Below are positions 5,858-61,548 of a stretch of DNA of 64,000 nt, piece by piece. The DNA is from Psammoneis japonica (Eukaryota). The notes beneath the pieces were generated by a model that saw only the letters and a list, made by a program, of their open reading frames with translations, made no database searches and had not been told where the DNA came from. The stretch's first letter is position 1; every line of letters starts with the position of its first letter. Both the position numbers and the translations under genes were made by a program. The stretch is taken from contig QPGO01000013.1 in assembly GCA_008632985.1 (NCBI GenBank), forward strand, positions 434,001 to 498,000, in the 5' to 3' direction.

Positions 5858-6253
5858 AGACTCGTTCCAGGTCTATGTAGGTGGGACCTCGTACTACTGA
5901 ACTGTGACATCGATAGTTTTTTGAGTCTCGTCGTATGTCGCGCACGTAGATTTCTACGTGATTTTTTCGATATTTTGTGTCATTTTACGGTACACTTATT
6001 GAGCGATCCGTCCAACAACTTTTGACATTTTTTGTTACAGCGCGATTCTACAATGTCTTAAGAATCGCGTAGGGCAGGCGAAGTTGCAAAAACGTCGAGT
6101 GGTAAGAGGCATAATTGTACCACAAACTTGGCCGTTTATTTGATGTTGAAGATAAATATATCCATTAATTAAATTCTCGTACTACAGAGCTCGCACGTAG
6201 AATTCTACGGGCCCAATGTCACACGGAGTCCCACCTAGGGCTGGAACGCGTCT
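5858..6253 (+). mobile_element. ~390 bp non-coding element with imperfect terminal inverted repeats (MITE-like), copy 1
   Basis: Ends AGACTCGTTCCAG..TAGGTGGGAC and GTCCCACCTAGGGCTGGAACGCGTCT; each arm carries the palindrome CGTAGAwTTCTACG; homologous inverted copy at 22143-22540. Confidence 0.7.
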
Positions 6254-6735
6254 CAACAGCAGCAATGTAAATTTCTCTCTTCTCCAATGACAAGGGGGGG
6301 GGGGGGGGGCACTGTGACCAATGTTTGCAGGAACTTGCTTCACAGTTTTGCTCTGCATGTGTGACGAACAAGCGCCGGCCAGCCGCTGTGACGAAGTGCT
6401 CCACACACATTGCCGAGGCAATGCCCAAGTGATCAAGTCCATCACTTTCCTTCTACAAAGGGTTTTCTTCTTGCCACAAGGTGACAACAATTGAGCCATC
6501 GCAGTCGCTGAATGTCATTGTGGCATGGGAAGAAAAACTGCAGGGTTCAGGATTCCATTTGCCCTTTCGAGCTCTGACAAATGACAAAGATCGACATTGG
6601 TGGCCCAGGTGGACAGCTGGTGCCGGGCGGAGGGGCCCTGCGGCAAAGAAATCCATGCATGTCAAAACGACCCAAAGTGTTGAATGTGAAAAAAAGAACG
6701 CCGCCGCTGCCCGCTGCTGTTGTCCATGTCATCCC

Positions 6736-21015: not shown

Positions 21016-22142
21016 ACAATTGGAGTAAAGAAAATTGGAGTAAAGAAGCTATTCAAGTCGTAGGCGGACCGTGAACGCGAAAAAGATACATATTAGGTAG
21101 GCTTGTAAAACCATTAAATTTACACCTTTCACTAATTGGATAGTACATAGACAAGGAAATTCTCCATTGAGACCGGAATGGGGAATATATCGGAGGTGCT
21201 ATCGCCGACCTTGTAGTTGCTGGCTGAAACGAACAACTGAGCCGCTTTTCTCGTGATATCTCGTCCTCTTGAATGCAGGTTCTTCTACACTTGCAGCAGA
21301 GCAATCTGATGATGAGGGGTCTTGTTCTTGATGAGAGTAGTTAGAGCTATAGCTGGCTTCCGAGTCTTTTCTTTTCGGAACGCGTGCTGGTGGCACTGAC
21401 GATCCAGGTGGTTCGTCGAAAGCTCTTGCTATTCTCGAGAGTTCCACTGTATCCACTTCACCGGGAAAGACAAGAAGAGACGATCTACTTGTGATAGAAG
21501 AAAGTCGATGATTCATGATAAACAATTCAATCCAGCGTTGAGGATCCCCTTCGAACGACGATGAAGCGATCTTACGTTATCGTAGTGCGTTCCAGTTCAT
21601 TCCCTGATCGAAAAATCCAAAATGAAGCACGCGAACAAAGGCGAACGCGCCTTTGCTTTGGTCGCGTGCGCACTCGTGACTGCAACTGCGAGAAAGTGAT
21701 GAGGCACGGGAACAAAATCGAAGCTCCGCACCCAATAGACACATCCAAGGTTGAATAAAATCCATTGACGAACATAAGTGTGACTTTTCCCGCGCAAAAA
21801 TTTAAGGCGCATGAGCCTTTTCCACATCAACATGGCAAAGGATCAGGATTCAGGATGCGCTTTCATCTTCATTCCAATGCTCTCGCCCCAACAACAAAAA
21901 CAAAAAACCGATAGACCCGAGACACCATGACCGACTACAAACGCTAGTGCTGCACAAAGGGACTAAAGAGTGCCACAGCGCAGTGAATGAATGGTGCGGC
22001 GGCGCAAGTGAAGATCTGCAGCAGCCGCACTGCGCTGCTCAAACTCATGCAGCTGCAGAGACGCGCTTTCCAGTCGGAGTCATTGACAGCTTTGCTGGAG
22101 TGAAAAAGACAAAACTGAGCAATGTTGAAATGTTTCGAGAGC

Positions 22143-22540
22143 AGACGGGTTCCAGTCCTGGGTGGGACTCCGTGTGACATTGGGCCCGTAGAATTCTGCG
22201 TGCGAGCTCCGCAGTGAATTCACCCTGCAATGAAAACATGCATGATCGCCAACAGAAAAAGAGACAATTTTACGAACGTATCTCCTCCTTCACACTTGGA
22301 GTAAATCATTGATGGTTTGCCCGGGTGTGTTCTTCAGACATCAAAGAACACACCCAGCATGTTTTCATTCTCACAAATGTTGAAAACAGAAAGCCTTTGG
22401 CTTCGCAAAACAGGGAGCATGAAACAATTTCGTAAAATGTCACACGTAGAAATGCACGTGCGCGACACACGACGCAATCCAAAAAACTGTTGATGTCACA
22501 GTTCAGTGGCACGAGGTCCCACCTGGAGCTGGAGCGCATC
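22143..22540 (-). mobile_element. ~390 bp inverted-repeat element, copy 2 (inverted relative to copy 1, partly TpA-converted)
   Basis: Both arms align to the reverse complement of 5858-6253; similar length; interior not recognisably homologous. Confidence 0.7.
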
Positions 22541-35259: not shown

Positions 35260-38200
35260 CAGTGCTCTACTGACAAATGCTAGCAGCTGCCTCTGCTCCA
35301 GCCTGAGCTGCCAATTCTTGTGCGTTTCTTCTGAGAAGGGGGGGGGAGAACACCACGACAAGAGCAAAAGAAAGTTTGCACAAACAAGTTGCCAACATTG
35401 GCTCATCCCCAGGAGCAAGAGACCCAGTCTAAGTCTCTGTCAATTGTGACAAGAATGTCTCAAGAAGTGATGCTGATTTCTGACCCTGGTGATCAAGAGG
35501 GGGCAACTTTTGTCTGTTGGGCAGAGTGAAGGAGAGACGCTGCTCGGCTCTTGTGTGGGGGATGCTCTCTCTTCCCCCCTGGGGTGCTGGCTGGATGGAC
35601 CAGCTGCACTCTCATGGTTTGGCTGGTTGAGTCATTTGCCTTGTGGGGAGGGACCCAGAGAGGTGTCTTGCAGTCACGTGAAAGGCGCATTTCAGCCACT
35701 CATGAGACGCGCAGTTTTGGGCCTCTTGGGAAAAAATGTTTTTTTCGGAATTTTGAAAAATGGGACCTCGTTGGTCGGTGAAAGCAGGAGCAAACAGAGA
35801 GTGATTTTTCAAACCGGTTGGATGGGTCTGATTTTCATGGACCAAGTCCAATGATGCGCGAAGATGGACAAGGGATTGATGGTTTTGCTGGGCTTCGGTT
35901 GTCGACGTCGTGATGTGTGGAACACCGATCATGAAGTTGAGACCAAATTTGAGAAAAAGAGCTCGTGACATGACACGATTGCACAAAAGAATGCAGTTTC
36001 CAAAATGGTTCTACAGATTTTGTCATTGTTCACTCACGTCATGCAGCAGTGCAAAAGAGAAAAGTGGGGGGAACCTGACTCAATTTTGAGACAGAAGGCA
36101 CTGAAGTTGTTAAAAAATGGCACAAATGATGTCACTTTCTCAAAAAGCATTCTTTAATGAGAATGCATGTGAGGAGTTGCAAGAATTGTTCATAAACACA
36201 GAAGTGTGATTGTGTGATGCCAAGTTCCTGATCACATTTTTGAAGGGCCACACACGACAGTGTTGTGATGTCCCGCTCACAGACAAATGATGACATCATG
36301 TCATGACACATGTGACATCAACAAATCACCTTTGTTTCAGCATGGCTTGTTGCAATTTGTCATTGCAACAAAAGAAAGAGCATTTCATTTGTTCTTCTCC
36401 TTTGACAAAAATGTCGCCAATCCCAGGAAGAGGCTTCTGATTGGCCAAAACACCAAATGCAATGCCCACTGACAAAAAACACCATTCAAGCCCCACAAAA
36501 CAGTCACTTGAGCCCCTTAAAACTGACAAAGCACCCACCCACCTGTGCATGTGTTGCTGCCGTGATCAACACAGTCCCTGCCACTGTGTGCGCATTGGCA
36601 AAAGACAAAACAATGACAGGCAACAGGATGCCTGCAGCCAATGGCACAAACATTGGAGCCCTCATCACTTTGTCAGAAGCAAAGCCTGAGATGTCAAGAT
36701 GGAGGCACTGGAGCCTGGTCAAAAAGAGAGTTGGCCACTCTCCTCCTGCCAGTGTGCCTTGAAAATGCAGCACACAGAAAAAAAGCTTTGTGCTTGCACA
36801 CTGTGACCATGCTTTTGCAGTTTGTTCTCCCACCAGTTTGTTCTGTCATGCTTTTCAGTGCCTCACCACATGATTCATCCATGTGTGTGAATTGCACAGA
36901 AGGTTCTTCTGCTGCTGTGCATCACCAGAAACTCCTTCACAATGTGGCCCACTTCCATGCACACACTCCATGCTTGTGTTGTTTCAGCACCTTGCTCAAA
37001 TCACTGGCTTCTCCAATGCATGCCAAACTTTGATGACAAGCACAAGACAGAAGCACAACAAAGCAACAAAACTTTTTTGCACCAGGGGTGCAGCTGGTGC
37101 ACCTGGGGAGCAAAGCCAGCTGGCATGCTTTTCACAACCTTGGCGGGGTGTCCTTGCCTTTGCAGTGCCTTTTTTGTCTTCTTTTGATCAAGTGCTCCTG
37201 TTCCCTTTTTCAAGATCATGCACATGGCCCCAGTTTGGTTCACCTCCAGTGACTTTGCTTGCGCCCCCAGTTTGCAGCACACGACCCCTCCTGCTTTCAC
37301 TTGCAAACCCAGCCCTGCTGGCAGCTGGAAATGAGCTCTCTTGTTGTTTTTCCACATGCGCAAAAACAGCTCAGCAGCAGCTTCACTTCAAGCAACAGGT
37401 CTGCTTCTGGGTGACACCATCTGGCTTTGTTGGGTTGTGACTGCAGCTCTGTCAAAAAGCAAGCTGGTGTGTCTGGGTTGCCATCTGGCAGCACTGGCCC
37501 CCAAGCTGCAGCTGCTGTTCACACAGCACTTGCACGCCACAGCACAAACTGGGTGAAGCAAAATCCTTGAGAAGCTGGTCATTTCATGTTGAGACTGCAC
37601 CTGGAGTTTGCTTCTCTCAACTGCTTGGATGTCAAAATTGAGCCCATTGTGCAAAACAAACAACCAGCTCGTCCTGGCAAGTGGGCCGAGCCGGGAGGAC
37701 TTCTTTTCCGCCCCAGCGAGGCCCCCCTCTTTGCTTTTCATTTCACATTGCTTTCAGCACAAGAATCTTTGTGACTTGACTTCACCTTTTGTTGCAGTGC
37801 AACTTGCGTCGCACTCAAACTTCCTTCTGCAAAACTTGCAACTCATGCCAACCAGGGAGCTGTCTGAGAATGCAAATCTTTTGTTTTTTCAACAGCAAAA
37901 GCCGTGTTTGCTGCAGGTGCCTTGCTTCTGTGTCTTCTTTGTGCCAGTCAGTGCACCATTTTTTGTCCCACCTGCTCTCCCCCCCCCCCCTTGACTTCAA
38001 GCTGTGTGCCACAACTCAGGTTTCAGCACACATCATTCTGTCGCCTTTTTCCGTCAATCGTGCACCCCACCCACCACCTTTCTCCTCCTTCTGTGGCTGC
38101 TGAAGTCTGTGCGCAACTTGGCAAGAGAGAGCCTGGGAAAGGTCGATTGTTTAAACACAGCAGGTGGTTGATGTGACCTGTGAAACATTGAAAGCACTCT
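35260..38200. other. TpA-depleted degenerate tract, probably a transposon relic; family not identifiable
   Basis: Almost no TA, few CG, excess TG/CA; only fragmentary Cys/His-rich ORFs. Confidence 0.5.
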
Positions 38201-41017: not shown

Positions 41018-42339
<1,322 letters not shown>

Positions 42340-42589: not shown

Positions 42590-44040
42590 CTACGGTAGAG
42601 TCCCGACATGGTACACACCTCTAGAAACGTCAGTCATACCGAAGAAATCAAAGGATGCTTCTTGTAAGATATTCGTCTATGGCATGTCACACTGTTAAAA
42701 TACAACAATGTCGATACTGCACTGGTCCTAAAGACTGTCTTTGTCAGGAACGATATAATGCCATTACCTCGAACTGTAGGCTGAGAACTAGCTCCTCCTA
42801 TTAGGGCTCTATGCCTTCTCAAAGGCTATTGTTCACCGATGCAACAACACTTTGACATACTAAGCCTCTCTTTTCTCTGGCAAAGGCAATCTAGAGAGCA
42901 CCAGTAGAGAGCAGGATATACTCTTTAGTCCCCACCTCGAAACGGTAGTAGTCGCGTTCTGGTTCTGAAAAGTTATTCTACCGCATAAATCAGTGGAGTT
43001 TGAATTGATTACAGTAGGGCCTAGTATTCAAAAAGATGACTTGCATTTCACAATTCATCATGAGATCTTCCACAAACATGGCCAATCACCTTGGGCAAGG
43101 CATCCTGCAAACTCTCGGCCGCCGTGTGCAAATTTTCCAAAAACTCATCCTGCGTCGGCCGATCACCATCGACAATATCCGTCACAACCTTGACACCAAG
43201 GTGAGGCGTATCGTGCAATTTACATGCCCACGCAATCGAGGCAATTTCCATGTCTTTTACTGACGCATCATTTGCCAGCATGTGCTTGTCGTCCGTTTCG
43301 GTCTTGTCGAGACTGTTGCCCGTTGTACAGACACCCATTTTGGCTCCAATCGATTTGGCAAGTTCCGAGGCTGGGACCGAGTCGAGTTTGCCAACACCAT
43401 ACTCGACAAAGGACGGAATGGGAATGCGCCGATCGTGATGAGCCGTTCCAGTCGTGACAAAGACATCCCCAATCGCAGCACCTTTGCGAGAAAAGCCTCC
43501 ACACGTTCCGGCGTTGATTACCAAATCGACACTATCCTCCAATTTTTGCAATGCCAAAAAGACAGCCATGGCTGCCGGGACGGTACCGCAATTGTCCACG
43601 CCTGTTCCGTACGTTTTGTCCTTGCCATTGGTAATGACTGTAACGTTGCACGCTTCGTGAATGCCCTGAAAGGCTCAAGAACGGAGCTTGCTTGGGGAAA
43701 AACTCGTCGACTGGGTTCAACTGCAAATGCTTGACAAAGGGCATGGCCTCTGCTTCCATGGCAATTGCAATGACGACACTGCTCAATGAGACAAAAGAAA
43801 AGGAGAAAATGTTGAGAGTGTTCCAGTGAGCAAAACAGTTCTTGCAGAAATCGATTTCTGCTGCGACATCTTTCTCACATGCCGAGAGGGGTATTCTTTT
43901 TTACGAATTTTAAACTCACTTTTCAATAGTTTTTGCTTCTAAAGGAGGCATGTCTTTGGTAAGAGATTTCACAAGAGACACAGCAAAGAGAAGAAGGAGC
44001 AACAGCTTGCGAAAAGTTGTAAGACACCATTGCGACTTTA
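42590..44040. repeat. ~1.45 kb segment duplicated in direct orientation at ~53530-54990 (copy A)
   Basis: Colinear similarity over the gene, intron and both flanks. Confidence 0.9.
43048..43951 (-). CDS. MTN: 5'-methylthioadenosine/S-adenosylhomocysteine nucleosidase, copy A (exon 1 MPPLEAKTIE; 1-nt frameshift near 43675 relative to copy B)
   Basis: IAMEAEA, DLVINAGTCGGF, STGNSLD-like motif, VKDMEIASIA, KVVTDIVDG. Confidence 0.85.
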
Positions 44041-44289
44041 AACATCGTAGACTCCAGTCGTGTGTCGTTTGGCATTTCATTCTTGGTGCTGAGTCGTGGG
44101 TTTGCATAGCAACACGGTACTACGCACAGCACCGTAGAGCTCTACTGCTTTTAGAGCCACTGCTCTAAAGAGTAGCCAGCTATGCTGGCTAGCGCTAGCT
44201 AGCTAGAGCTGCTCCACTAAGAGTGGAGAGCATGTAGCAACCCGATTTTCGATGTGTCTGTACTTCTAATCGTCGGATTTATCATTGGC

Positions 44290-47200
44290 AATTCTTTTCG
44301 TGCCATGCTGATCCCGTTGTTGTGTCGATTGCTGTGAAGCTGTCAGGAGACCGACACATGATGGAACATTTGTGTTTTTTGCTTCAGCAGTGCTTTGTTG
44401 ATTGTTGGGAAGGTTGTCAGCGGCCCTGAAGCTTGTGCTGGTCCACAACACAAGCCTGCTAAAAAATGGCCACATTCACAGCACGGTTCAGCAGCAGATT
44501 TTGTCCAGATTGCTGGTGTTTTGGTCGCTGGTGTTTTTGTGAAGCAAGGGCTTTTGACCAAGGCAGAAGAAGCTCTCCACTTGTCTTCTGTCTTGAGTGT
44601 CTGTCTGGAGCAGACATCCAGATGACATGCCAACTGGACACTTGGAGCTCTTGAGCTGGCCTCACAGCATGCTCTGCTCTTTCATCATGATCGTCGGCCG
44701 ATCCCAAGCATCCTTGACATGGTGTGCTTGTGGCAATGGAAACAGAGGGTTTTGAGTGATCCAAGGAAGTGCCATCTGCAGATGCCAAAGATGCTTGGAA
44801 TGCATTTCACAATCATGGCTGTCAAAGAACACAGACTTTGTGTTGAGTGCTTCACAGGAGCACACTGCAGCCTGGGAAAACACAACAAACTGACATTTGT
44901 GTTGAGTGCTTCATGGGAGCACGCAGCAGTCTGGGAAAACACAACAAATTGGGATGCCCAAAGTGCAGCACCCTTTGTGCCAAGTGTCAGTGTCATTCTC
45001 TTCAGCGCACTCCACAAGATGGAACAGCAAGAATGCAGAGAAGGGAGTCTGATCATGAAACAAAACAACCTGGCCAGAGAAGAGGGACTTTGTTTGATGC
45101 TTTGAAAGCACGCTCAAGAAGCAAAAACCAATTTGCTTGGTCTTTCCTTGGTTGGATGGCTGGAAAGACAGTGGAAAGCTGGGTCTGTCTGCAAACTGCT
45201 GCTCTCTTGTTCCAAAAGATGACCCTTCTTAAATGGGAGACAGCAGCAGTCAAAAGGGTCAAGCTGGTGAAATGTCTTCATTCAATTGTGGTGGTCTGCA
45301 ATGACTTGAGCAAGACTCAAAACAATGCAACCCAATGGTGCACAACCCTGCAGATTGTGCACTTGCAAATCTTGCAAAATCAGATGACAGCTTCCTTTGC
45401 AACTTCATGTTCTGTCTCTCTTGCCAAGAAGCTAGAAAGAAAGTTGAGGCAAGGAAGGGCAAGAAGTTGGACAGTGGCTGATGGAGCCATTTGTTCACAA
45501 AGTGTTTTGCTGCTGCTAACATCATGAGGAGTGTGTGATGCTCAAATGCCAGAAGTGGTCTCATGCAGTCACTGACTGGCTCACACTTGGCTGCTCAAGT
45601 TGCACCCGACAATCTCTCTTCTCTGCTTTCTGGATTTGGTCCTGCAACAACAAAGCACACTGAAAGGTGGAGGAACCAGAAATCTGTGGATCAAAAAACA
45701 ATGAATGAAGAGTTTGACTTCTCCAAAACATTGAAGTGCAACCACCTGTGCAACCAGCAAGACAACTGTGGGCACAAAGTTCATGGAAAGAAGAAGAGCA
45801 AGGATGGCCTGTTCAAACCACTCAACAAGCAATGCTTTCACATGACTGAGAACAAGCACAACCACTGACAGAGACTGCTTCAACCGAAGCTGTCTTGACC
45901 AAGAGGTTTTTGGCTGGGGAAGCCTGACCACAATTTTGAATCAGAATGACAACTTGAGCATTTTGATTGTTGTGAAGCTGTGTGAAAGGCATCAATCACA
46001 CAGATGAGGAGCATCTGGCAAGACTGCAATTGAGGATCATCAAGTCTGTGATGGTTTGTGAGTCAAAAAAGATGTGGCTGAGGACTGCACAGCATGCAAG
46101 GATGATGCTGCAGATGGTGGGGTTTGAATGGCAAGGTGCACCACACACTGGCATGAAATCATGTCACAGGCGACACTTGACAGTGCTGATTTGGATCTGT
46201 GCTTTTCTGAGTCATGACGGCAGATTGGTGCGAGAATGTGCACATTGACAATGATGAAGACAATGCTCCTGGTGAGGTGTCAACTTTTCAGTCAGTCAAC
46301 AAAAGACACATGGCTGTGCCTCTTGATGCCAATTTTGCAAATGCCAGCACACTGAAAAGGGTGCATGTCTCTTGTGGCCAGCTTTCTAATTGATTGGTGG
46401 TGCTCATTGCCAGCACTGAAGAAGCTCACAGAGAAAGCAATCTTGTTCAGAAAAGCCACCAATGGGAAATTCATGCATGCTGACAGATTCACAGAATTGA
46501 TCATCCATGATGAATGGCACCATTTTGGGGGTTGTGTAAATGGCACCATGGAAAACCATTGCAAGCAGTGCCAAACAACAGCAATGATGCACCAAGCACC
46601 AGTCATGTGGCAAAGGTGGCAACAAAGCAAATGGCAAGTGGCCAGCCAAGGAAGCTGGAGCTCATTGACAAAGTGTTTTGTGAAACTTTGCTGCATGTTG
46701 AAGATTTGAATCTTCATGGAGACAGTCCAGTTAAAAATGCTCCAGCAGGTCCATGCTTGTTGGAATGGCACAAATGTTGTCATGCAGGTGACTGGGGGAG
46801 CAAGTGTCAGTCAGGGAGTGCATTGGCCCATCTGGCATGAAACTCAATGTGGGTGCTTGCTTTGGTTTGTCACACTCAGTGATTGTTGACAGAGATTTTT
46901 TTGTTTCCACATGGAGGCAGAAGATTTGAATGACCCCAAGAGACCCAAGGGTGAGGGTCAAATGGATCTGTTGGTGCTGGATCCACTCAGGAATGCAGCT
47001 GACAGCACTCAGTTTGAGCTGGAAAGGAAGTGTTCCATGTCAACTGACTCCACATGCTCAGTGGAAAAGGGTGTCCATTTTGGCAAAAGAGGCAACAACA
47101 GAAACAGGCAAGCTTGAGGAGGAACTGCAAAGGTGCTGCAACAAGAGGAAAATTGACAAAGAGTTCCTCAGGAGTGCAAAGGAATCAGAAACAGTGTGGA

Positions 47201-47550
47201 GTGTCAATGCTGATGGCCAAGCCAGGGTGTGTGCCATGCAGAACAAGACTTTCTCAGTTGGCGACATTGTCAAGGCATCAAGGCAAGAAAGAAGCTCATG
47301 GAGTTGGACTCCATCTGGAGTGAAAACAGTGCAACAATGTGACACATGAAAGTTGAGATGCCTGGATGATTGCCAGCAATGAGGATTTCCAACCCAGGCT
47401 GAAAAAGAGCTGAAGCATGATCTGTGCACCTTTGAGAGCACTGGGGCAAGAGAGGTTTGGCACTGACACTGTGCAGTTTATCTCATCTGAAGGAGCAGAC
47501 AAGAGTGGTGATGATGAAGTGGCATCAGCACTGTTGCAGACATCAGAAGG
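44290..47550. other. TpA/CpG-depleted degenerate tract of unidentified origin (left part of the large block)
   Basis: No intact ORF; composition identical to the adjacent LINE relic. Confidence 0.45.
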
Positions 47551-47599
47551 ACTGGGGAAATGGCACGCAGTCACAGCAACTTTCCAGTTCTAAATTGAG

Positions 47600-50500
47600 G
47601 TTTTTGCACTTGCAAAAGATCTCTGCAATGCAAGCATCACATGCACCTGCATCTTGCAAATCACTGTCAATCATCTGCCTGTGTCCAACAATTTCCTGAT
47701 CAAATGTCAATGATGTCTGAGACATTGTCTGATGTGTCATCCTCCTGGACCTCTCTGCAGGGTTGTTGAGAGGCTTCATCTTTGGCTCCTCTTGCTTGGA
47801 ACAATGCCCCTCAATGAGATCAGCAACCTGTTCTAAAAGTGTTGAATCTGGACTCTTCAGCTTCCCCCCACAATCAAAGTTGCCGTGATGTGCTTTTCTC
47901 ACTCCTCTCACTCCAACAATCTGAGTGCATTGGAGCACACAATGCCATGTGTTTTTTTGCTCTCTTCTTCTTTGATGAAGCTGGAAAACACAGAAATGGC
48001 TTGTTGCATTGCTTGCAAAAGCAGGCTGGCTGCCATCTGTCTTTGATGCAATTCACCGAACATGAGATGAACATCAATCAGTGATTTTCCCATCAACAAT
48101 TCCAAAATCCTTGGAGCAACCCAAGGCTGATCTTGGGACTGCAATGTTGGGGCAAACCTTTGCTGCAGATTTGGCACCATTCAGTTTGAGCCTCAGCAGC
48201 TTTGATTGAAGCTCCATCAAGCAGCTGACAGACAATTTGATGTGAAAATCATCTGATGCTTTGGTGGCACAATTCACAACAGCAGCCAGCTGCAGATCAA
48301 AACTGGAAGCAACAAAAAAAAAAATTTGCTGTGTGAAGAAGATGGAGATGTGGCAATGCTTGTCAATCATCACAGTTGTTGAGCAGCAGGCCTCCGAGTT
48401 TCACACAACATGGAATGGTTTTTTTTTCATTTTTTTGGTGTTGGGTGCAGAGGCATCAATTTGCAAATGTCAGCACATGGTGGGCCAGGTTGCATTTTCA
48501 CATGAACATGCAGATGGCAGCATGCCAGGACAGAGATGAATTTACAGATGATGAATCCAATGACAAGGACATGACATTGCTGGACAAACTTGAGCCATGT
48601 GCTCTGTCAGATGGCCTGCACCTTGTCAACTGCAAGGAGAGAGTTTTTGGCAAGACATGGGCCACAGCTGGCAAATGGCAAGAATGACAGTGTGGCACCA
48701 AGACTTTGAACAACTCAAAGGACAGAACCCAATGAATGAGGCTTTGTCATCACTTTTCTTCTTGAGTTCCTCAACTTGTTTTTTCAAAGTGCCAGCCAGT
48801 GTGACATGAAATCCCAACATCTTGTGGGGTGCATGCAGGGGATGCATTCTAGCCCTGGCAGGTGGTGACTTCATGTGGCCCACAGAGTCATGCACACAAG
48901 CTCTGCAGCTCTTGTGCTGGCCGGTCAGTGCACACATTTGTCTTCAACATCTAAACTCAATGATCAAGTTTGTGGCACACAATTGCAGCACCTCTCAACA
49001 ATGCTTGCAGTTTTTGAAAATCCACCTTCCCCACACAATTCTCAAGACATTTGAGAATCATGCTATGAAGAAAAGATGTCAAAAGTTGCTCAATGGATGT
49101 CCAACAATTGTGCCACAAAATGTCACAAAATTCCACCAAAGTCACATGGAAATGTGCACACATGACATGCAGTGTGGGGCAAAAAACCATCAATGTCACA
49201 GCTCAGCACTGGCAGCATGAGGTTTCACCTGGAGCTGGAATGCATCAGGAACAGATAAATGCTGCATGACAGAAGGAGTGGTCTGCCAAGCAGATTTCCT
49301 GCACAAGTCTTTGCTTGTGCATGGCCAAAGATGGGGCTTGACACATTTGGCAAAATTCCATTTGATTGTGCAAAACCAGCACTTTGGGAGGTCCAATTCA
49401 TGGCCACATGCACTCAGCAGATCACACAACAGCTTGTTGTTTTGTTGGAGAGGCAAGGTGCCAGGTCACATGCCAGCAGCTGTGAAGAAGCTTGAAAGTC
49501 ATCAACTTGCTCAAATGCATCATCAACATGGCCGCGGGTGTGGACTTGCAAGCTGAAGCCACCATCAGGGGCAGACTGCAAAAAGCCCTTTTCAAGAGTG
49601 CAAGAATGCAGGGGGGAGTCAGCCGCTGCTTCCTTGACCTGTGCTGCAATGGGTGCACACCAGCAGAGTGACAGTGACAAGTTGCAGTCAGTGCAGTGAC
49701 CAGAGTGAGAGGAGTCAGTTCTGTGCTTCTTTGTGTGCAGCATTGGTGGCAAAGTGCACAATGTTTTCTCATGCATTCTCCCAAATTCTTGGCACAAATT
49801 GCCACAATGCATGGGACACTTTAGCAGCAGCAAGACATGCAGCCATCATTGCCAGCTGTCAATGTTTTCTAAGAAGTTGTGGAAAATTTCATCATTGGGA
49901 TCTCAAGAAATGCGGGAGTGCCAGAACACCTGAAGGCAAGATTGCCACAGATGCTGAGGTTGTGCAGGCAGTTGTTTGCAAAATGATGGGACAACTCTTG
50001 CCATTTGACACTGCAGATGAGTTGGAAATCAGCTTTGGAGATGTTGACAACCAGGAGTCTCAGTGAGTCTTGTTGTCATTGCCAGGTTCCTTGAAGACCA
50101 CAATGTTGAGACAACATCTTTCCATGAGCCACAGGAGCAAAAACCCATTTGAGCATGCAGCTCAACAAGTTCAATCAAATGGCAGCCAAAGATTTTTGTG
50201 GTGACCCAGCTGTGTTCGTTTTTGGTGGGATTGCCATGCTCATCTTGAGAAGAACAGTGCAGGTGCTTTGCACAAGTTGCCTTCCAGCACTCCAGATGCA
50301 GTGCTGATTTGATGGAGGTGGGCTTGGGTCACTTTCCAATTTTTTTCAGGTTCTTGGAAGAAGAAGAGAGTGCATCAGACATGGACACTCTGGAGTCTGT
50401 CTCTGCAGAGATGTTTGGCTGGCAGCAAGGTGGCCTCATTGAGGGCACTGGCCTCACACTCACCATTGAACACAAGCTCAGCCATTGCAGTGTCTCCCTC

Positions 50501-53450
50501 ACAACCCAGATCTGTGGAAAACAGAGGAACAGTGGGAGGAGTTTTGCAAGCTTGTCCCAAGTGCTTTTGACTTTGTTTGCCTTGAGAGAATCTCCACAAC
50601 ATCTTCAGGAGCATCTGTTGTGACCCAGCTTGTGCACTCCTTGAGACTCTCCTCTGGATTCTCAGGCACCAGAATGTTGTGGACACTGGTGCTTTCTGTG
50701 CAAGACCAAGCCTTAATTTTTTGAAATGTTCCGCTGGTTTCTTTGGTGGTGCACATGTTGCACAGAACCTTTGCCTGTTTCTTGGACTTGTCAGTGCCCT
50801 CTAAATTAACTCCAGCAATGCAAGCATCCCACTCTTTTCACAGTGACAAACACCATCTCCAGCCACCTGCTGGCACTCAGCTTGGGCCTTGGGAAGCCAA
50901 GTCTCTGACACTCTGCCTGTTCTTTGCCTGGAATGAGTTGATGCTGGGTGAAAAGGATGGAGTTCCCACAAAATTGACACCCCCCACCTTGTGCATGGAA
51001 GGGACCCGCCGCATCAGAACAAATGCTTTGTGGAGCTGTGCCAGCTGAAAAAACCACTCTGTCTTTTCTGAAACTGTCCACAGTGTCAAGCTGCAGAAGA
51101 TGCAAACTGCAGCATGCAACAATCTGATTGTTCAGCAAGCAAGGGTGGGATCTGCAACATCAGATTGCAGGAGCTGAGCACTCCTTGCCAGGACATTTGT
51201 GTGGACCCATGGAAAATCCACAAATTGGGCTTGATGATCAAAGGAAATGCAACAGCTAAAAAGAGCTCACAACCACAAGAACAGACCACATCAAGAACTC
51301 CTGGAGTCACCAACATGTGGTCCAATCTCTTTGATCTGTGGACAAACAACAAGCACCAAAGCTGTGACATCCTGTGCATGGCTGAACATCCTTGCACGGC
51401 CCACAAGATTGAGCTGACAAAAGCCAATCTTGCTGAAGAATTCTCATCATTGGCAAAGTCTGCATTGAAGTTGCCAAAACACTGCAGCTTCAGAGAATGG
51501 ACTGTCAGAAGGTGAGTGTGCAGTCACACTCATGATGGAAAGCACATGTTGCAGATCGCTGCCCAACACAGCAAGGAGATCTCTGGTTCAGTGGTGTCAA
51601 GGCACATTGGAGACATGCCCACCAAGTCTGTCTGGACTTCATTTGCCAGCTGAAAAAAGGCAACAAAATTGCCATTGGCACAAGCATTGAATTTGCACCC
51701 ATTTGCACTGGAGGTGTGCAGACAAGTGCAGTGTGAATCTTCCTGAGTCAGACAAGCTGGAGCGATCAATCTGTTGAGATGAATCAAGGAAGGTGAGTTG
51801 CTGTTGAGACAAGATCTAACTCCACTGCTGCTGAAAAGGAAGCTCTGGGAGGAGACTTGGGAGGAAGGCACTGACCCTGCATCTTGTTGAGAAAGGAGGG
51901 CAGGGAGGATGACTTGTCCTGCCTTGCACAGAACCTGACTTGGTCTGGGTCATGGCAGTCATGGCACAGCACATTGAGGATGACTGGCCTCAGACACACT
52001 GGGTTTCAAAGTGAGTGGTCTTTTGGGAGTTGGGGGGGGNNNNNNNNNNNNGGGGGGGGGGCAGAAAGGGGCAAAACAAGAGCAGCAACTTGATGGTGAA
52101 AAATGGCCTGAGGAAATTGCTGAATGTCTTGTTCATGGAGCTTTTCCTGTGCTTTGTGAAAATTGGGTTGTGACCTCAAGGAATCAACTTCAGTCACAAT
52201 GGCTGACACTTTGCACACTTTCTTTTTGATGACATCTGTCATTCAGTGAAATTCCATCATTGGACAATGTGTGGCACAGTGATCCCACAACAAAGTGTTG
52301 ACCCAAATTCTGAAAACACACGGAGTTTTGAAGTGCCCATGCACAGAATCATGTTGCTCAGGCAAAAGTCATTGTGTGAAGATTTGGAGAAAAAGCATTC
52401 CTTGAGGCATCCATCAAGTGGAGAAGCATGGCAGAAGCACAAGAAAAATGCTGACCCAAACCCTGTTTGTTTGTGATTTTTTCCACATGCAAGAAAATTT
52501 CCACATGATCATTGCACCATGGCTTGTTGAGAGAGCCCCAGCTGTGAAGACTTGCCAATGCGATCAAATGCGTGGCATCTGAGGTGTCTTTGAGATGCCA
52601 GGAATTGTCAGATGGGGCAGCCTGCCACCACAGGGAGCACATCACAGCCAGGCAGGTTGTTGACCACAGCTTGAAGATTTTGCAACAAAGCTGGCAAACC
52701 AGCTTGTGCATTTTGCACCAAGCTAACACACTCTGCACCACAAGGGACAACATCAACCACTCCTTCTTCCAAGGAGCCAGGGTGTGACCAAGTGGCTTTC
52801 TCATGCTCGTTTGGGTGAGAATGATGCCAACTTCTTGATGGAATCAGAAAATGGGGATCATTTTTTAGAATTTCTGTCAGACATTGAGCACTTCTTTCAC
52901 ACTGTTGCAGGGAGTTTCCACTGACAAGAACTCTGCATGAATCACTTTGTCATCATTGGGAGTGTGACAGATTGAGGAATCAACTGCTGAGTTGGGAGCT
53001 TGGCACAATGTCTCAGTTGGGGAACAAGGCAATGAGGCACTTGAGTGCCAAAACAGTGGAGTGGTGCATTGGCAAATTGTCCACAATCTGGGCAGTGTGG
53101 GCCACACATTGGTCACTGTTTTGTCCCATTTGTGAGATGACACACAAAGACGGCATTGTTCTTTGAAGTCTTTTGCACAAAAAGCAACATGTTGAATTTT
53201 GATGAGGAGAGAGAGGCATGGAGTTGGTGTGAACAGTGATGCAGGTCAGGGCACAATGACCGGTGCCACTGATGTGGTGGACAACAAAGTGCTGGGAGTC
53301 AGCAAGGCCAGGTGTCCGCTGAACGCCATGTTCGTTGATTTCAGGGACTGTTTTGCCACTGCTGGAATCAAGTGATCTCCTGCATTTCCACCAAGCTGTT
53401 TGAAATGCCAGAACCAGATCTGGTGGGAGTGTGTGGAGCATTTTCAACAG
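47600..53450 (-). mobile_element. Degenerate non-LTR (LINE-like) retrotransposon; ends approximate; assembly gap at 52040-52051
   Basis: Ordered minus-strand RT fragments: WK..TSIKSALHLECWKA (~50280-50345), VVFKEPGND..SKADFQLICSVKWQEL (~49995-50105), STGQGSSG (~49622-49645), GHVDD (HVDD at 49519-49530), LLSACGHELDLPKCWF (~49375-49422). Confidence 0.75.
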
Positions 53451-53529
53451 CAGGTGGAGGATCGGGTTGGTGAGTGCCGGCATCATGGTGATGAGATCTT
53501 GGTGCAAAAAGCACGTGAAAAAGCAACAA

Positions 53530-54990
53530 GTCCCGACACAGGTGTGGGCACGCACCCAGAAACGGCAGTCATGCCCGAAGAAATCAAAGGATGCTTCTTG
53601 TATGACATGGGACCGTCTGTGGCCTGTCACACTGTTAAAATACAACAATGTCGAAAATGCACTGGTGCTAAAGACTGGCTTTGTCGGGAAAGGATACAGC
53701 ACCGTAGAGTGATTTGACGCGAAAACTGTGGGCTGAGAACCAGCTCCTCCTATTTGTGTTCTATGCCTTCTCAAAGGCTGTTGTTCACCGACATCACTAA
53801 CCTTTGACACACCAAGCCTGTCTCTACTCTGGCAAAAGTAATCTAGAGAGAGTGCCAGCAGAGAGCAGGTTATACTCTAGTCCCCACCTCAAAACTGTAG
53901 AGTCTGAGAAGCAATGCGCTCTGTTTCTCAAAAGCTATAGTACGGTTTTTAATTACAGTAGTATTTTAAAACATGTCTTGCATTTTACAACTCATCATGA
54001 GGTCTTCCACAAACATGTTCAATCACCTTGGGTAGGGCACTCTGCAAACTCTCGGCTGCCGTGTGCAAATTCTCCAAAAACTCATCCTGCGTCGGCCTAT
54101 CTCCATCGACAATATCCGTCACAACCTTGACACCAAAGTGAGGCGTATCATGCAATTCACATGCCCACGCAATCGAGGCAATTTCCATGTCTTTGACGGA
54201 CGCATCATTGGCCAGCATGTGCTTGTCGTCCGTTTCGGTCTTGTCGAGACTGTTGCCCGTTGAACAGACACCCATTTTGGCTCCAATCGATTTGGCAAGT
54301 TCCGAGGCTGGGACCGAGTCGAGTTTGCCAACACCATACTCGACAAAGGACGGAATGGGAATGCGCCGATCGTGATGAGCCGATCCAGTCGTGACAAAGA
54401 CATCCCCAATCGCAGCACCTTTGCGAGAAAAGCCTCCACACGTTCCGGCGTTGATTACCAAATCAACACTGTCCTCCAATTTTTGCAGCGCCAAAAAGAC
54501 AGCCATGGCCGCCGGGACGGTACCACAATTGTCCACGCCCGTTCCGTACGTTTCGTCCTTGCCATTGGTAATGACTGTAACGTTGCACGCTTCGTGAATG
54601 CCCTGAAAGGCTAAGAACGGAGCTTGCTTGGGGAAAAATTCGTCGACGGGGTTCAACTGCAAATGCTTGACAAAGGGCATTGCCTCTGCTTCCATGGCAA
54701 TCGCAATGACGACACTGTTTAGTGAGAAAAAGGGGAAAAAGATGAAATTATGTGAGTGTGTATCAGAAAGCATGCTATTGCTTACAGAAATCGATTTCTG
54801 CTGTGATCTGTGATAGTATCTTTCTCACATACACAGATGGGTATCCTTTTTGTACGAATTCAACTCACTTTTCAATAGTTTTGGGTTCTAACGGAGGCAT
54901 ATCTTTGGCAAACGACTTCACAAGAGACACAGCAAAGACAAGAAGGAGAAAAGCCTTGCACGAAAAGTTGTAAGACACCATTGCGACTTG
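53530..54990. repeat. Duplicated segment, copy B
   Basis: Aligns to 42590-44040; the left ~350 bp carry TA->TG/CA changes. Confidence 0.9.
53985..54900 (-). CDS. MTN: MTA/SAH nucleosidase, copy B (intact; exon 1 MPPLEPKTIE, intron ~54715-54868)
   Basis: Same motifs as copy A, uninterrupted frame. Confidence 0.88.
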
Positions 54991-55330
54991 CACAAAAAAA
55001 AATGCCGCAACGGTCGGTTCACGTGGTGGCGTGAACCAGTGACGGCCACTGCAGGGGTGTAGTATGTTTTCACATACCGTAGAATCCGATATTTCACCTG
55101 GTATATTGACGTCATGATGACGTTCAAATTATTTCGAACGAATCGAATTCCCTCCGACCTCGTCAGACGCCGATTTGTGTTTTGTTTCCATCCTATTGCA
55201 ACAGCAACACGTGACAAAACTGCCAACACCAGTCTTGTATTATTTTCTCACAAAACGTCTTTGCAGTACTACTAAAACAAAGCAAAAGTCAGCACCTTGA
55301 TTGATAAGTGTCAGAAAAAGAGAAACAAAA

Positions 55331-56884
55331 ATGGCGTGGTTCAGCAGAGGCGGCTTTGCAATGTTTTCGTTTCTCGGCATGCTTTTTCTTTCTCGAGTAC
55401 CATCGGCTCTTGGCTTTTCCATAATACCGCCTCTATCGACAAGAACAAACTACTATAATCAAAAACAGCCTTCAGTTCTGTTTGCATCTTCTTCCATTGC
55501 AGACAAGACGGATCCGTTTGACATTCTCAATCTGACACCCAGTCCCAATCTAGACAAGAAGGAGATTAAGCGTGCGTACAAGCGCATGGCGTTGCGTTTT
55601 CACCCCGATGTGGTGACAACAAAAAATTCAACGCCCGACGAAAAGAAGCGTGCCAATGATGACTTTGCTCGCATCAATTGGGCGTACGAGACACTGAGTG
55701 GAAAGAATAATAACCAAGAGGACAGTAGCGCAACAAGCAGTAGTAATGCTGGATACACTCCACCTCATCGACGAAGTGGTGCCTACACTTCTTCCAGCAC
55801 AAAACGAACAACAACATCAGCAACACCAGGCGCAAGCACCAATTGGGAAGATTACATGCCAAAATACAATGAGGAGGACTACGATGCGGGCGGCGATTCG
55901 TTTGGAGCCATCTTTTCCGATTTGCTCACGGGCGCCGCCATGGGAGCCGCCGGAGTCGCTTCAGGTGGTGGTGGCGGTGTCTTGCGTGATTTGGTGGAAT
56001 TTTTGGAGCGCAATGTCGATGGCTATTCGGGTGGTGCTCAAGACGATGCTCAATTGACCCTATTGTTGCAAACGGGAACTGTCGAAGAAATTGGAATGGA
56101 AATGGATGATACCGAATTGGTGGTGCAGCAATTGTCCTCCAAATTGCAAAATTTGCAACAAGAGTACATGACTGTATCGGAACAAGCCAAGCAAACGGTG
56201 CGGTACTTGGAACGACTCGAGTTGGAAGAAGCAGCCGAAGAGATTCAGGCACGACAAAAAGTGTCCGAGGGATATTTGAAAAAGGCGCGAGCGCGATTGG
56301 TCAAGCTGCAAACACGATACAAACAACTCATTGTCAATGGCGACAATGACTTTGATATTGGTCGCGGAAGCCGACAATCGTCATCGTCGTGGGACTCTAA
56401 TACCACTGGTACAACTCGCGATACGGTTGGAACCGACTACTCGAGAGGCAAGGACGACGACGATGAAGCTTGGAAACATGAAGGCTTTGGATCGTCGGGG
56501 CGAAGCCGTGGTAGCCGTCGACGTCGTAGCAGCCGTGCCCGTCGTACAACAGCAGCATCTTCCACCAATACGAGCAATGACTTTGGCAAACACTCGTCTC
56601 AACAGCAACCGCGTACACCTGAATCGCCACGGCAAACGACGTCTAGATCTACAACAACTTCTACTGGAACTTCCCGAAGCACAACGACTACTGGAAGTTC
56701 GCGAGGCGCAACGACTACCGGATCCCGAACAAGCGCGAGCTCGCCACCAGAACCGTGGACACCACCCGTCCCACCGCATCGGCGAACGTCCACCACAAGC
56801 CAAGCCCAGGCAGACAAACGACGACTACGACAACTCAAGGTGGAAGAAGACTTTGATCAGCTAAAGAAGGATCTTGGATTGTAG
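55331..56884 (+). CDS. DnaJ-domain protein with coiled coil, probably plastid-targeted
   Basis: DPFDIL..EIKRAYKRMALRFHPD..FARINWAYETLS J-domain; signal peptide + 'LGF'. Confidence 0.85.
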   Translation: MAWFSRGGFAMFSFLGMLFLSRVPSALGFSIIPPLSTRTNYYNQKQPSVLFASSSIADKTDPFDILNLTPSPNLDKKEIKRAYKRMALRFHPDVVTTKNSTPDEKKRANDDFARINWAYETLSGKNNNQEDSSATSSSNAGYTPPHRRSGAYTSSSTKRTTTSATPGASTNWEDYMPKYNEEDYDAGGDSFGAIFSDLLTGAAMGAAGVASGGGGGVLRDLVEFLERNVDGYSGGAQDDAQLTLLLQTGTVEEIGMEMDDTELVVQQLSSKLQNLQQEYMTVSEQAKQTVRYLERLELEEAAEEIQARQKVSEGYLKKARARLVKLQTRYKQLIVNGDNDFDIGRGSRQSSSSWDSNTTGTTRDTVGTDYSRGKDDDDEAWKHEGFGSSGRSRGSRRRRSSRARRTTAASSTNTSNDFGKHSSQQQPRTPESPRQTTSRSTTTSTGTSRSTTTTGSSRGATTTGSRTSASSPPEPWTPPVPPHRRTSTTSQAQADKRRLRQLKVEEDFDQLKKDLGL

Positions 56885-58895: not shown

Positions 58896-61548
58896 TTAAA
58901 AGGCTTGATTGTCCTCGTAACCGAAAAGCATAACCGACGATGGCGAGCGAGACATCTGGCCTTCCTCCGATCCGCTCTCGGCGTTGAGCTTGCTGTTCTT
59001 GTCGGCAGCGGGCTGGACCTTCTGGACTTGATCGCGGAGAGTCTCGAGCTGTTCTTCGGCAACAAAGTGCTCGTAATCACCAGTCTGCTCAGTTGCCTGC
59101 TCAGGAGCCTCGACAGCAGACTCTTCCTGCACCGGAGCAGAGGGCCTGGCGAAATAACTGCGACCAAACGAGGATGGATCGACGTTCTCGACACCAATCT
59201 CGGGATGCGCGTACATGACGGCTTGCTGTTTGAGAGCGGCAGCTTCGGCGAGAATCTGGGCGCGTTCTTCGGCGTCTTCTTCCGAATCTTGCTGAGGAGC
59301 AGAAGCACGGCTGTAGTAGTTGCGAGCAGTAGCGGTACCGTCCACCTCGACAGGTAACTCGGGATGCGCGTACATGACGGCCTGCTTCTTGAGAGCAGCA
59401 GCTTCGGCAAGGATAAGAGCACGTTCCTCAGCATCTTCCTCGGACTCTTGCTGAGGAGCAGAAGCACGTGCAAAGTAGTTGCGAGCAGTGGCAGCAGAGT
59501 CGACCTCGACCGGAAGCTCTGGGTGAGCATACATGACGGCCTGCTTCTTGAGAGCGGCAGCTTCGGCAAGAATCTGGGCGCGTTCTTCGGCGTCCTCCAC
59601 AGACTCCTGCTGAGGAGCAGAAGCACGGCTGTAGTAGTTGCGTGCAGTAGCAGTAGCATCCACATCGACCGGAAGCTCTGGGTGAGCATACATAACGGCC
59701 TGCTTCTTGAGAGCGGCAGCTTCGGCAAGGATAAGAGCGCGTTCTTCGGCGTCCTCCAACGACTCCTGCTGAGGAGCAGAAGCACGGCTGTAGTAGTTGC
59801 GTGCAGTAGTAGAAGAATCGACCTCGACAGGAAGCTCCGGATGAGCATACACGACGGCCTGCTTCTTGAGAGCAGCAGCTTCGGCGAGAATCTGGGCTCG
59901 TTCCTCGGCGTCCTCCAACGTCTCCTGCTGAGGAGCAGAAGCACGGCTGTGGTAGTTGCGTGCAGTAGCAGTACCGTCCACCTCGACAGGCAACTCGGGA
60001 TGAGCATACATGACGGCCTGCTTCTTGAGAGCAGCAGCTTCGGCGAGAATCTGGGCTCGTTCCTCGGCGTCCTCCAACGACTCCTGCTGAGGAGCAGAAG
60101 CACGGCTGTAGTAGTTGCGAGCTGTAGCAGTTGAGTCGACCTCGACAGGAAGCTCTGGGTGAGCATACATGACGGCCTGCTTCTTCAGAGCAGCAGCTTC
60201 GGCAAGGATAAGAGCGCGTTCCTCGGCATCCTCCGTTGACTCCTGCTGAAGAGCAGAAGCACGGCTGTAGTAGCTGCGTGCGGTAGCAGAAGAGTCGACA
60301 TCAACCGGAAGCTCTGGGTGAGCGTACATGACGGCCTGCTTCTTGAGAGCAGCAGCTTCGGCAAGAATCTGGGTGCGTTCTTCGGCGTCCTCCGCGGACT
60401 CTTGCTGAGGAGCAGAAGCACGGCTGTAGTAGTTGCGTGCAGTAGCAGTACCGTCCACCTCGACAGGCAACTCGGGATGAGCATACATGACGGCCTGCTT
60501 CTTGAGAGCAGCAGCTTCCGTGAGTACGAGAGCGCGTTCTTCGGCGTCCTCCGCGGACTCTTGCTGAGGAGCAGAAGCACGGCTGTAGTAGTTGCGTGCA
60601 GTAGCAGTACCGTCCACCTCGACAGGCAACTCGGGATGAGCATACATGACGGCCTGCTTCTTGAGAGCAGCAGCTTCCGCGAGTACGAGAACGCGTTCTT
60701 CGGCGTCCTCCTCGGACTCTTGCTCAGGAGCAGAAGCGCGGCTAAAGTAGTTGCGACCAAAGGACGTAGGATCAACGTTCTGGACGCCAACTTCAGGATG
60801 AAGGTAGTCGAATGCAGCTTTCTTGAGCTGAGCAGCATCGGCCAACACTTGAGCACGGGCCTCTGCTTCCTCTACAGACTCCTGCGGAACAGACGAGGGG
60901 CGATCAAAGTAGTTGCGTCCGCAGGCGGTAGGATCCGACGCGACAACACCTAGCTCGGGATGAGCATAGTCGGTGGCAAGTTTCTTGAGAGCGGCCGCTT
61001 CGCGAGAATCAGCGCGCGTTCCTCCTCTTCCTGCGCGTCTGGTGCACTCGGGCGATTGAAATAGTTCCTGCCCATGGCGGTTCCGTCCACTTTGACGGGA
61101 GCTTCTGGATGCAAGAAAGCATCCGCAAGCTTCTTGAGATTGCGAGCGTCCTCGAGAATGCGAAGCCTCTCGACGAAAAACTCGTCTATGGAAATGAATG
61201 GCGAAAAACGAGTGAGTTTCAAAATTCAACTTGGAAATTCTGTGAGAGCAAGAACATCGTACCTTCTTCCTCTTCTTCTTCGTCGTCACTGCTGTCGACA
61301 AAGGAGGATTCGTCGTCGTCGTCCGAGATCTCTTCCATGGGAATCGGCTGTTCTTCGATAGAACGTTCGACAATCGGCTGTTCTACGGCGGCAACAGCCT
61401 CGATGCTTGCTTCGGATTTGGAGACAAGGACAGGCGCTTCATCGACGACGACGGCTGGAGTGGATTTACGTCCTCTCACGTTTCGGCCCAACTTCTTTTT
61501 GCCTTTCGGCTTGTTGGGAGAAGCGTGGGAGGACTGAGAGGACCCCAT
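58896..61548 (-). CDS. Protein with about 13 tandem 53-aa repeats (LKKQAVMYAHPELPVEVDGTATARNYYSRASAPQQESxEDAEERAxILAEAAA); intron ~61188-61262; frameshift near 61000
   Basis: 159-nt periodicity (GCACGGCTGTAGTAG-like at 59305, 59623, 59782, 59941, 60100, 60259, 60418, 60577); N-terminus MGSSQS. Confidence 0.8.

Follow-up and report, generated by a model that had tools for sequence, protein, structure and literature searches.

TpA depletion beside a TpA-poor insertion in the diatom Psammoneis japonica: a duplicated host spacer compared with its distant twin

Results

The duplicated segment and the TpA asymmetry between its copies

The stretch of DNA analysed here (the window) comprises 64,000 nucleotides of Psammoneis japonica (GenBank assembly GCA_008632985.1, contig QPGO01000013.1, positions 434,001 to 498,000 of the forward strand; positions below are counted from its first letter). 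It is diatom nuclear DNA with kilobase tracts in which almost every TpA (TA) became TpG or CpA, changes that equal A:T to G:C transitions at TpA on either strand. The subject of this study is a 1.44-kb segment that occurs twice and flanks a 9.5-kb insert (44039-53528) largely made up of a TA-free block (24 TAs in 44290-53600; Table 1). In local alignment, copy A (42599-44038) matches copy B (53529-54989) with 114 substitutions, a divergence of 8%. Each copy holds an MTN gene and the spacer beside it, and outside the duplicate the sequences are unrelated, with a GAPDH gene to the left of copy A and a gene for a DnaJ-domain protein to the right of copy B. That the two copies differ in TA is confirmed, with modest statistical significance, and the difference lies at the end of copy B that abuts the block.

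Table 1 Coordinates of the duplicate, the insert, their neighbours and the elements used for polarity
Feature	Position	Strand	Remarks
MITE-like copy R1, unmutated, TA- and CG-rich	5863..6286	+	inverted repeats; nested in TA-free 5200-6900
MITE-like copy R2	22101..22536	-	14 TA→TG/CA vs 1 reverse; 15 CGs kept
ANK + zf-MYND ORF, 666 aa	22678..24675	+	Pfam; in TA-free, normal-CpG tract 21970-24648
GAPDH gene, neighbour on copy A side	41311..42339	+	Pfam Gp_dh_N, Gp_dh_C; 93% identical protein in L012
Copy A of GAPDH-MTN spacer, TA-rich reference	42599..43047		local alignment; 15-16 TAs per 200 bp
MTN copy A, pseudogene	43048..44038	-	at least 2 frameshifts vs copy B; homology to B stops at 44038
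TA-rich left end of inserted DNA	44039..44289		no homologue beside copy B; 20 TAs in 250 bp
TA-free block (inserted DNA)	44290..53528		CpG-free core ~44700-53250; assembly gap 52040-52051
MITE-like copy R3, in block, fully converted	48830..49240	-	compared with R1
Copy B spacer, focal flank	53529..53880		no TA to 53600; ~45% of TAs converted to 53859
MTN copy B, intact gene	53985..54981	-	Pfam PNP_UDP_1; spliced ORF 280 aa; intron 54715-54868
DnaJ-domain gene, neighbour on copy B side	55301..56884	+	Pfam DnaJ; homologue between GAPDH and MTN in L012
MITE, miniature inverted-repeat transposable element; ORF, open reading frame; aa, amino acids.

Over the 303 ungapped dinucleotide columns of B 53529-53880, 12 of the 23 TAs of copy A are kept in copy B, nine read TG or CA and two are otherwise changed; conversely, one of the 14 TAs of copy B is CA in copy A (A 42887 / B 53839). 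The original prediction had listed ten TA→TG/CA changes, all in copy B. All ten were found, eight as clean aligned substitutions and two beside indels (ctag→ccag near 53558 and catacc→catgcc near 53573), and a further clean change missing from that list (ggTAc→ggCAc at 53549) raised the clean total to nine. The changes thus fall in copy B at nine clean sites, or 11 with those beside indels, but the word "all" has to yield to the one reverse site. In the formal alignment the reciprocal changes were unequal, with 9 vs 1 (binomial p=0.021), or 11 vs 1 when the indel-adjacent sites were included (p=0.006). Other transitions in the interval were balanced (5 vs 3) and accompanied by 17 transversions, and the rest of the duplicate differed from the flank (3 vs 8; Fisher p=0.0075). 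The coding region of the duplicate had 2 vs 3 TA conversions, which bears out the earlier statement that it is little biased, although distance from the block is confounded there with purifying selection on copy B.

Tandem bicarbonate-transporter genes far from the tracts (13725-15727 and 16615-18627; 95.6% identical) served as a control duplicate and carried no TA bias, with 56 TAs kept and conversions of 1 vs 3. This control is relevant to the view that the excess at one end of two copies diverged by 8% is mere noise combined with post-hoc choice. Only 10-12 sites are informative, the p-value of 0.02 is uncorrected, about four non-overlapping 350-bp windows were available to choose from, and the flank conversions lack the context preference described below. 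Against this, the excess sits at the very end that adjacency to the TA-free block had predicted beforehand, the first 73 bases of copy B prolong the TA-free run of the block, the non-TA transitions are balanced, the control duplicate has 4 changes among 60 TAs, and the contrast with the rest of the duplicate is as given above. We therefore regard chance as an unlikely explanation, albeit one that keeps some weight.

Extent of the TA-poor zone and the narrower CpG footprint

At the homology junction (53529) the TA-free run continues unbroken, with one TA at 52866 and the next only at 53601, so that the first 73 bases of copy B hold no TA and the homologous bases of copy A hold five. From 53601 to 53859 about 40-50% of the TAs are converted, and the next ten, at 53871-54146, are all kept (Mann-Whitney p=0.02-0.04). 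Sliding windows of 350 columns taken away from the block gave ratios of 9:1, 6:2, 6:4, 2:4 and 1:3. The partly converted zone is accordingly about 330 bp long and ends near 53860, a short distance from the end of an MTN-B transcript contig at 53920. The bias is therefore confined to the block-proximal end, as the original prediction proposed, but the "fading" that it described is a step near 53860 rather than a smooth gradient.

CpG (CG) behaves differently. In the flank it is kept, with eight in copy A and ten in copy B and no CG of A that reads TG or CA in B; at this locus, decay of the methylation type is found only in the core of the block, in which the MITE-like copy R3 has lost CG at 24 of 24 sites. 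The TA-free zone (44290-53600) exceeds the CpG-free core (30 CGs in 44700-53250) by about 350-400 bp on each side, and these shoulders are TA-free yet CpG-bearing, CpG being present up to 44699 on the left and reappearing from about 53260 on the right. The overrun into the flank is one of the TA process only, and the footprint of CpG decay is narrower.

At the other end of the insert, the insert-proximal end of copy A may show a mirror effect, with five sites that are TA in B and TG or CA in A against one in B 54629-54978. Two or three of these five sites lie in poorly aligned intron sequence and a TA-rich segment of 250 bp stands between, which weakens this observation to a hint. About half of the TAs in that segment (44039-44289) are by our reading of their positions in the context YTAR (Y, pyrimidine; R, purine), partly owing to a (CTAG)n run. 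The window has just two occurrences of the 13-mer CAGCACCGTAGAG, one at 44127-44139 in this TA-rich segment just past copy A and one at 53697-53709 in a short replaced stretch within the flank of copy B, and this shared 13-mer may be a footprint of repair or insertion.

Direction of the changes

The flank changes had been put forward as direct, polarised evidence of TA loss. Their polarity is not direct but derived from other evidence in the window. No outgroup for the spacer was found, as the 80 metagenome loci match the window at the nucleotide level only in the MTN genes, GAPDH and about 19885-20604, and among the contigs of the source sample neither flank copy occurred with other letters as a second allele.

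Three lines of evidence bear on the direction. Firstly, a MITE-like element of about 420 bp is present in three copies, for which the TA-rich copy R1 was used as the reference. R1 has 12-16 TAs per 200 bp and its flanks 0-1. Compared with R1, R3 in the block shows 20 TA→TG/CA changes vs 2 reverse and 24 CG→TG/CA changes, and keeps neither TA nor CG. When all three copies are aligned, R1 has TA at 12 sites at which both R2 and R3 have TG or CA; six of them are concordant and six discordant, with TG in one copy and CA in the other, and because the discordant sites require a TA ancestor, TA is ancestral at the MITE-like sites. Secondly, the ANK-MYND ORF has a single Tyr among its 666 residues (0.2%, vs 3.4% in six other genes), together with 5.0% Cys and 3.0% His. 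At the 13 Tyr positions of its only database homologue (P0121, 45% identity) it has eight Cys, one His, three Phe, one Leu and no Tyr, and the Cys and His codons are TGY and CAT, respectively. The tract that holds this ORF (21970-24648) starts at the mutated MITE-like copy R2 and ends at the stop codon of the ORF.

Thirdly, the rate at which copy A gained TA can be estimated from the exon, in which copy B, being constrained by selection, was taken as the approximate ancestor. Had the spacer differences arisen by gain in copy A, 9 of 48 TG/CA sites would have to have changed, compared with 2 of 123 in the exon (Fisher p=0.0002), and the exon rate is thus about 12 times too low. This comparison speaks against the reverse polarity, in which TG and CA are ancestral and the decaying pseudogene copy A acquired TA by C to T changes at CpA/TpG, either ordinary or like those of repeat-induced point mutation (RIP). 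C to T is the commonest spontaneous change, the TA ratio of the copy A region (0.83) is among the highest in the window and the spacer has no outgroup, all of which would suit such a gain; yet C to T changes outside CpA show no excess in copy A (5 vs 3), and the sole context-specific process documented in this genome is TA→TG/CA. Gain in copy A is accordingly very unlikely. The direction in this genome is TA→TG/CA, and because the MITE-like copies, the ANK-MYND ORF and the gain rate of copy A all point the same way, the flank changes probably represent TA losses that took place in situ in copy B.

TA-free tracts and the sequence context of the process

Seven TA-free tracts, with boundaries set by us at 200-bp resolution, add up to 17,679 of the 64,000 bases. 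In dinucleotide profiles their ratio rho falls to 0.0-0.06 for TA and rises to 1.6-2.2 for TG/CA. Between 45001 and 53000, rho is 0.03-0.06 for TA (2-4 TAs per kb), 0.03-0.08 for CG and 1.6-2.1 for TG/CA, and the G+C content is unchanged. The large block is depleted in TA and CG alike, as is tract 35230-38200, whereas tract 21970-24648 has lost TA and retains normal CpG; TA loss is thus separable from CpG loss.

Among the 53 TAs that survive in the tracts, 30 are YTAR, 22 are of mixed context (YTAY or RTAR) and one is RTAY, compared with 323, 1023 and 524, respectively, outside them. Relative to the outside density, survival is about 24% for YTAR, 5.6% for mixed contexts and 0.5% for RTAY (p=1e-10). 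At mixed-context sites the changed strand, in our own tally, reads TAY at 23 of 34 (R2, 4/8; R3, 9/14; flank, 3/4; Tyr codons after a pyrimidine, 7/8). Together, the product tetranucleotides and this strand tally modestly favour the A before a pyrimidine (5'-TAY-3') as the likely target. On the plus strand of the tracts, CTAA is found 13 times vs 2 for TTAG (81 vs 70 outside), a strand asymmetry. Strand-coordinated runs of conversions were absent from the MITE-like copies, in which the two strands are interleaved, and the pattern of a processive single-strand deaminase was rejected on this ground.

A different chemistry with the same targeting has to be weighed here, in which an enzyme of the TET/JBP type oxidises the T of TpA to 5-hydroxymethyl- or 5-formyl-uracil, which mispairs with G and yields T to C. 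TA is self-complementary, so that T to C and A to G are indistinguishable by sequence. Since both T and 5-methylcytosine would be substrates of 5-methylpyrimidine oxidases, these enzymes might link the loss of TA and CG in older tracts. Such a link is at odds with tract 21970-24648 and the flank, which lost TA without losing CpG, and TAY on the changed strand at 23 of the 34 mixed sites, a weak fit to a rule of A before a pyrimidine, also speaks for the adenine. Oxidised thymine is therefore quite unlikely as the source of the changes.

An enumeration of codons showed that TA→TG/CA never makes a stop from a sense codon and turns TAA and TAG into TGA, CAA, TGG or CAG. Because the change creates no stops and removes TAA and TAG, the tracts hold many long ORFs that are meaningless. 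No credible Pfam match was obtained for any of the 109 ORFs of the block (44 of at least 90 aa and 65 of 55-89 aa), the best scoring E=0.0006 and none lying above the curated cut-off. Of the ORFs in the other tracts, 58 matched no transposon or virus family of Pfam, the 59th being the ANK-MYND ORF.

The insert, its assembly and the host origin of both copies

No long terminal or inverted repeats were detected in the block by self-BLAST, and the only signs of repetitiveness are a single MITE-like copy and word depth raised in places. The original prediction had called it a transposon block. The MITE-like copy and the word depth raised in parts agree with that name, but none of the 109 ORFs matched Pfam, and the block can be called only a putative transposon block. 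A run of 12 N at 52040-52051 is an assembly gap inside the block, so that its length and content as given here are provisional.

Contigs of run X1 from the source sample span all three joins, those of GAPDH with copy A, of copy A with the block and of the block with copy B. They were assembled separately by Logan from the same sample and hence do not constitute independent sequencing. Within the block they differ from the assembly at none of 6428 and 2082 bases, with exact-word depth near 70. These contigs bear on the idea that the tracts are an artefact, in which modified bases in silent DNA would give systematic miscalls of TA and CG. Base modifications do bias some long-read consensus calls, and the DNA of the block occurs only in the source sample's own runs; but the exact agreement of the X1 contigs at that depth needs accurate reads, every site is a clean TG or CA, and a like signature is found both in an unrelated contig (L028) whose name points to a short-read assembler and among the Illumina-called de novo mutations of Bigelowiella natans (see Discussion). 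We consider an artefact extremely improbable. L028 comes from another diatom and is one of the 80 metagenome loci; near 170-1160 it has a TA-free, TG/CA-rich tract with a rho of 0.3-0.6 for CG, and the TAs in or beside this tract are TTAA, TTAG and CTAA.

The host origin of the duplicate is indicated by its neighbours. In the metagenome locus L012, from a relative, GAPDH, DnaJ and MTN lie within 4.3 kb (2-4271). Two further loci (L044 and L046) carry MTN and GAPDH, which brings the loci with at least two of these genes to three of 80. Because the relative's contig has GAPDH, DnaJ and MTN side by side, the duplicated spacer is the GAPDH-MTN spacer and ordinary host DNA in both copies. The simplest history is that one host MTN gene lay between GAPDH and DnaJ and that a 9.5-kb insertion flanked by a duplication of 1.44 kb of host DNA followed. 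The DnaJ-MTN pair of L012 is inverted relative to the window. The nearest relatives of the MTN-like protein of copy B are diatom transcriptome and metagenome proteins with at most 74% identity. Contigs of run X2 behave like transcript contigs, and one of them joins 54714 to 54869 across the GT..AG intron of MTN copy B on the minus strand. X2 contigs do not cover copy A or the block, an observation made on contigs alone and given no weight here.

Genes lie densely in the window and include those for GAPDH, MTN, a DnaJ protein, bicarbonate transporters, an SRP54-type GTPase, a serine carboxypeptidase and a transaldolase, among others; scanning the whole window for tRNAs and Rfam families returned no hits. 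An X1 contig over the 3' part of GAPDH (42033-42306) shows nine differences, all C/T transitions, at full depth, which suggests a second GAPDH allele or a paralogue. About ten tandem copies with a period of 159 bp and 58% G+C lie at 59187-60756, within a minus-strand ORF (58899-61382) that has a repeated weak match to the Pfam family tPilZ.

Discussion

In-place, position-dependent loss of TA that overran from the block into host DNA is the best available reading of this locus, and we judge it to be probable, though well short of assured. The hypermutated zone would pass the edge of the inserted DNA into copy B, leaving no TA in the first 73 bases and about 45% of the TAs converted up to about 53860, shortly before the end of the MTN-B transcript contig. 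Its target would be set by location, most likely by a domain of silent chromatin that started on the inserted DNA and had its limit at the active gene, and thus not by transposon ancestry, since the zone overruns into a host copy. Repeat homology does not appear to set the target either: copy A and both bicarbonate-transporter copies keep TA, so mutation triggered by duplication was not observed and the process is not homology-triggered. The chromatin that would set the mutated domain and the chemistry are both inferred, the latter as a deamination of DNA adenine that prefers RTAY sites and probably acts on the A in 5'-TAY-3'. CpG decay has a separate and narrower footprint that does not overrun, and is what the cytosine methylation of diatom repeats is known to bring about.

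Several observations weigh against this interpretation. The chromatin domain and the enzyme are both hypothetical, and the block encodes no recognisable transposon or virus protein among its 109 ORFs. The 11 flank sites are polarised only indirectly, and the flank interval was picked post hoc by eye, with p only about 0.02, so that the p-values are optimistic. The flank conversions show no preference for RTAY over YTAR (RTAY 3/8, mixed 4/8, YTAR 2/7), although these numbers are small. The left edge of the TA-free block is abrupt, from nine TAs per 100 bp to none at 44290, and sharp edges, with a change within about 100 bp, mark the other tracts as well. Moreover, the mirror effect at the end of copy A rests partly on poorly aligned intron sequence, and an unmutated element of 424 bp (R1) is nested in a TA-free tract. 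R1 must have been inserted after hypermutation, so that the process is episodic or had ceased at 5863-6286. Because tract edges are sharp and an unmutated element lies inside a TA-free tract, position alone cannot suffice for mutation, and timing must also matter, with either an episodic process or a very recent insertion at 5863-6286. The original prediction spoke of position-dependent spreading into ordinary DNA. That the host flank is poorer in TA than its twin exactly beside the block stands; the insufficiency of position alone and the indirect polarity qualify the remainder.

The locus amounts to a natural experiment, with one copy of a host sequence next to a hypermutated insertion and a second copy at a distance from it. 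If our reading is true, the process changes resident DNA in situ, its aim depends on location and not on the ancestry or homology of a sequence, and its footprint differs from that of cytosine methylation. It would also predict that host genes adjoining insertions suffer directed mutation. Two experimental handles follow, namely the tetranucleotide preference, for candidate deaminases, and a defined boundary that can be compared with chromatin maps. For annotation there is a warning that long ORFs in TA-free tracts are meaningless, because the process removes stop codons.

Editing systems offer a first comparison. In ADAR hyper-editing and APOBEC editing, transitions of the deaminase type are clustered on selfish sequences, and ADAR favours U before the edited A. 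The substrates of ADAR and APOBEC are RNA or the replication intermediates of an element, whereas here a resident MITE-like copy, an ORF and a host spacer were changed in place, with both strands interleaved. These editing systems are also brought up in the discussion of the only earlier account of TpA-only hypermutation, a preprint of 2026 that deals with a rhizarian alga (Mettrop et al., bioRxiv 10.64898/2026.01.13.699255). The decay of CpG, for its part, resembles what is expected of diatom transposons, which carry DNMT5-dependent cytosine methylation (Hoguin et al. 2023, PMC9998398): the CG→TG/CA changes in the block core and in 35230-38200 fit deamination of 5-methylcytosine in silenced repeats. 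Such decay cannot explain the loss of TA, given that tract 21970-24648 and the flank keep normal CpG.

The process most similar to the present one is that of the preprint, in which the DNA of giant viruses and virophages integrated in Bigelowiella natans undergoes A:T to G:C hypermutation at TpA only (bioRxiv 10.64898/2026.01.13.699255). As described there, the mutations were seen de novo in mutation-accumulation lines and called from Illumina data, a de novo rate that exceeds the background by orders of magnitude being a mark of this type; an ADAT2-like adenine deaminase was proposed, transposon-type domains were enriched among the depleted genes, and the process was apparently not constitutive. 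The account is silent on target choice, and its main text, searched by term, yielded no analysis of wider context or of flanks, which the supplements may hold. Both systems change TpA exclusively to TpG or CpA over kilobase-scale regions, with TpA depletion and CpA+TpG enrichment as the trace left in the long term. Correspondingly, the products in the window are specific to TpA (14 vs 1 and 20 vs 2 in the MITE-like copies, 9 vs 1 in the flank, and Cys or His at 9 of 13 Tyr positions), and they lie in discrete tracts that combine depletion of TpA with enrichment of CpA+TpG. As for a mobile or foreign target, two mutated MITE-like copies lie in tracts and the word depth of the block is raised in parts, but neither the 109 ORFs of the block nor 58 ORFs of the other tracts match a transposon or virus family of Pfam, and host spacer is affected as well. 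The differences are that the host there is a rhizarian and here a diatom (a stramenopile); that rho is 0.45 for the giant-virus region and 0.03-0.06 here, a near-complete depletion; that some tracts here are also depleted in CpG, and that a tetranucleotide preference and evidence of overrun into host DNA are added; and that nothing here was observed as a de novo mutation, as it was there. Full-text literature searches turned up no account of such hypermutation in diatoms. This type of hypermutation has thus been described once so far, and the diatom tracts are a new lineage for it.

Fungal RIP is alike in being a local transition hypermutation that marks repeats or foreign DNA, and the overrun seen here resembles the leakage of RIP into adjacent single-copy genes (PMC3105345). 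It differs in three respects. RIP makes TpA from CpA, while the process here destroys TpA, which is depleted rather than in excess; RIP needs duplicated sequence and hits both copies, while the 1.44-kb and 2-kb duplicates here were spared; and RIP creates stop codons, which TA→TG/CA cannot do, since it removes TAA and TAG. A bolder reading, tentative and with slightly less than an even chance, is a domain-targeted DNA-editing defence in diatoms that would convert the A in TpA, best in RTAY and probably as 5'-TAY-3', to G. Such a defence would be independent of CpG methylation and of repeat homology and would act in episodes. It would erase Tyr codons, TAA and TAG stops and TA-rich signals without making new stops, and it would spill over a few hundred bases into adjoining host DNA, exposing the genes next to insertions to a burst of directed A:T to G:C change. 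If common to a diatom and a chlorarachniophyte, it would be an old and widespread counterpart of fungal RIP in the SAR (stramenopile, alveolate and rhizarian) lineage.

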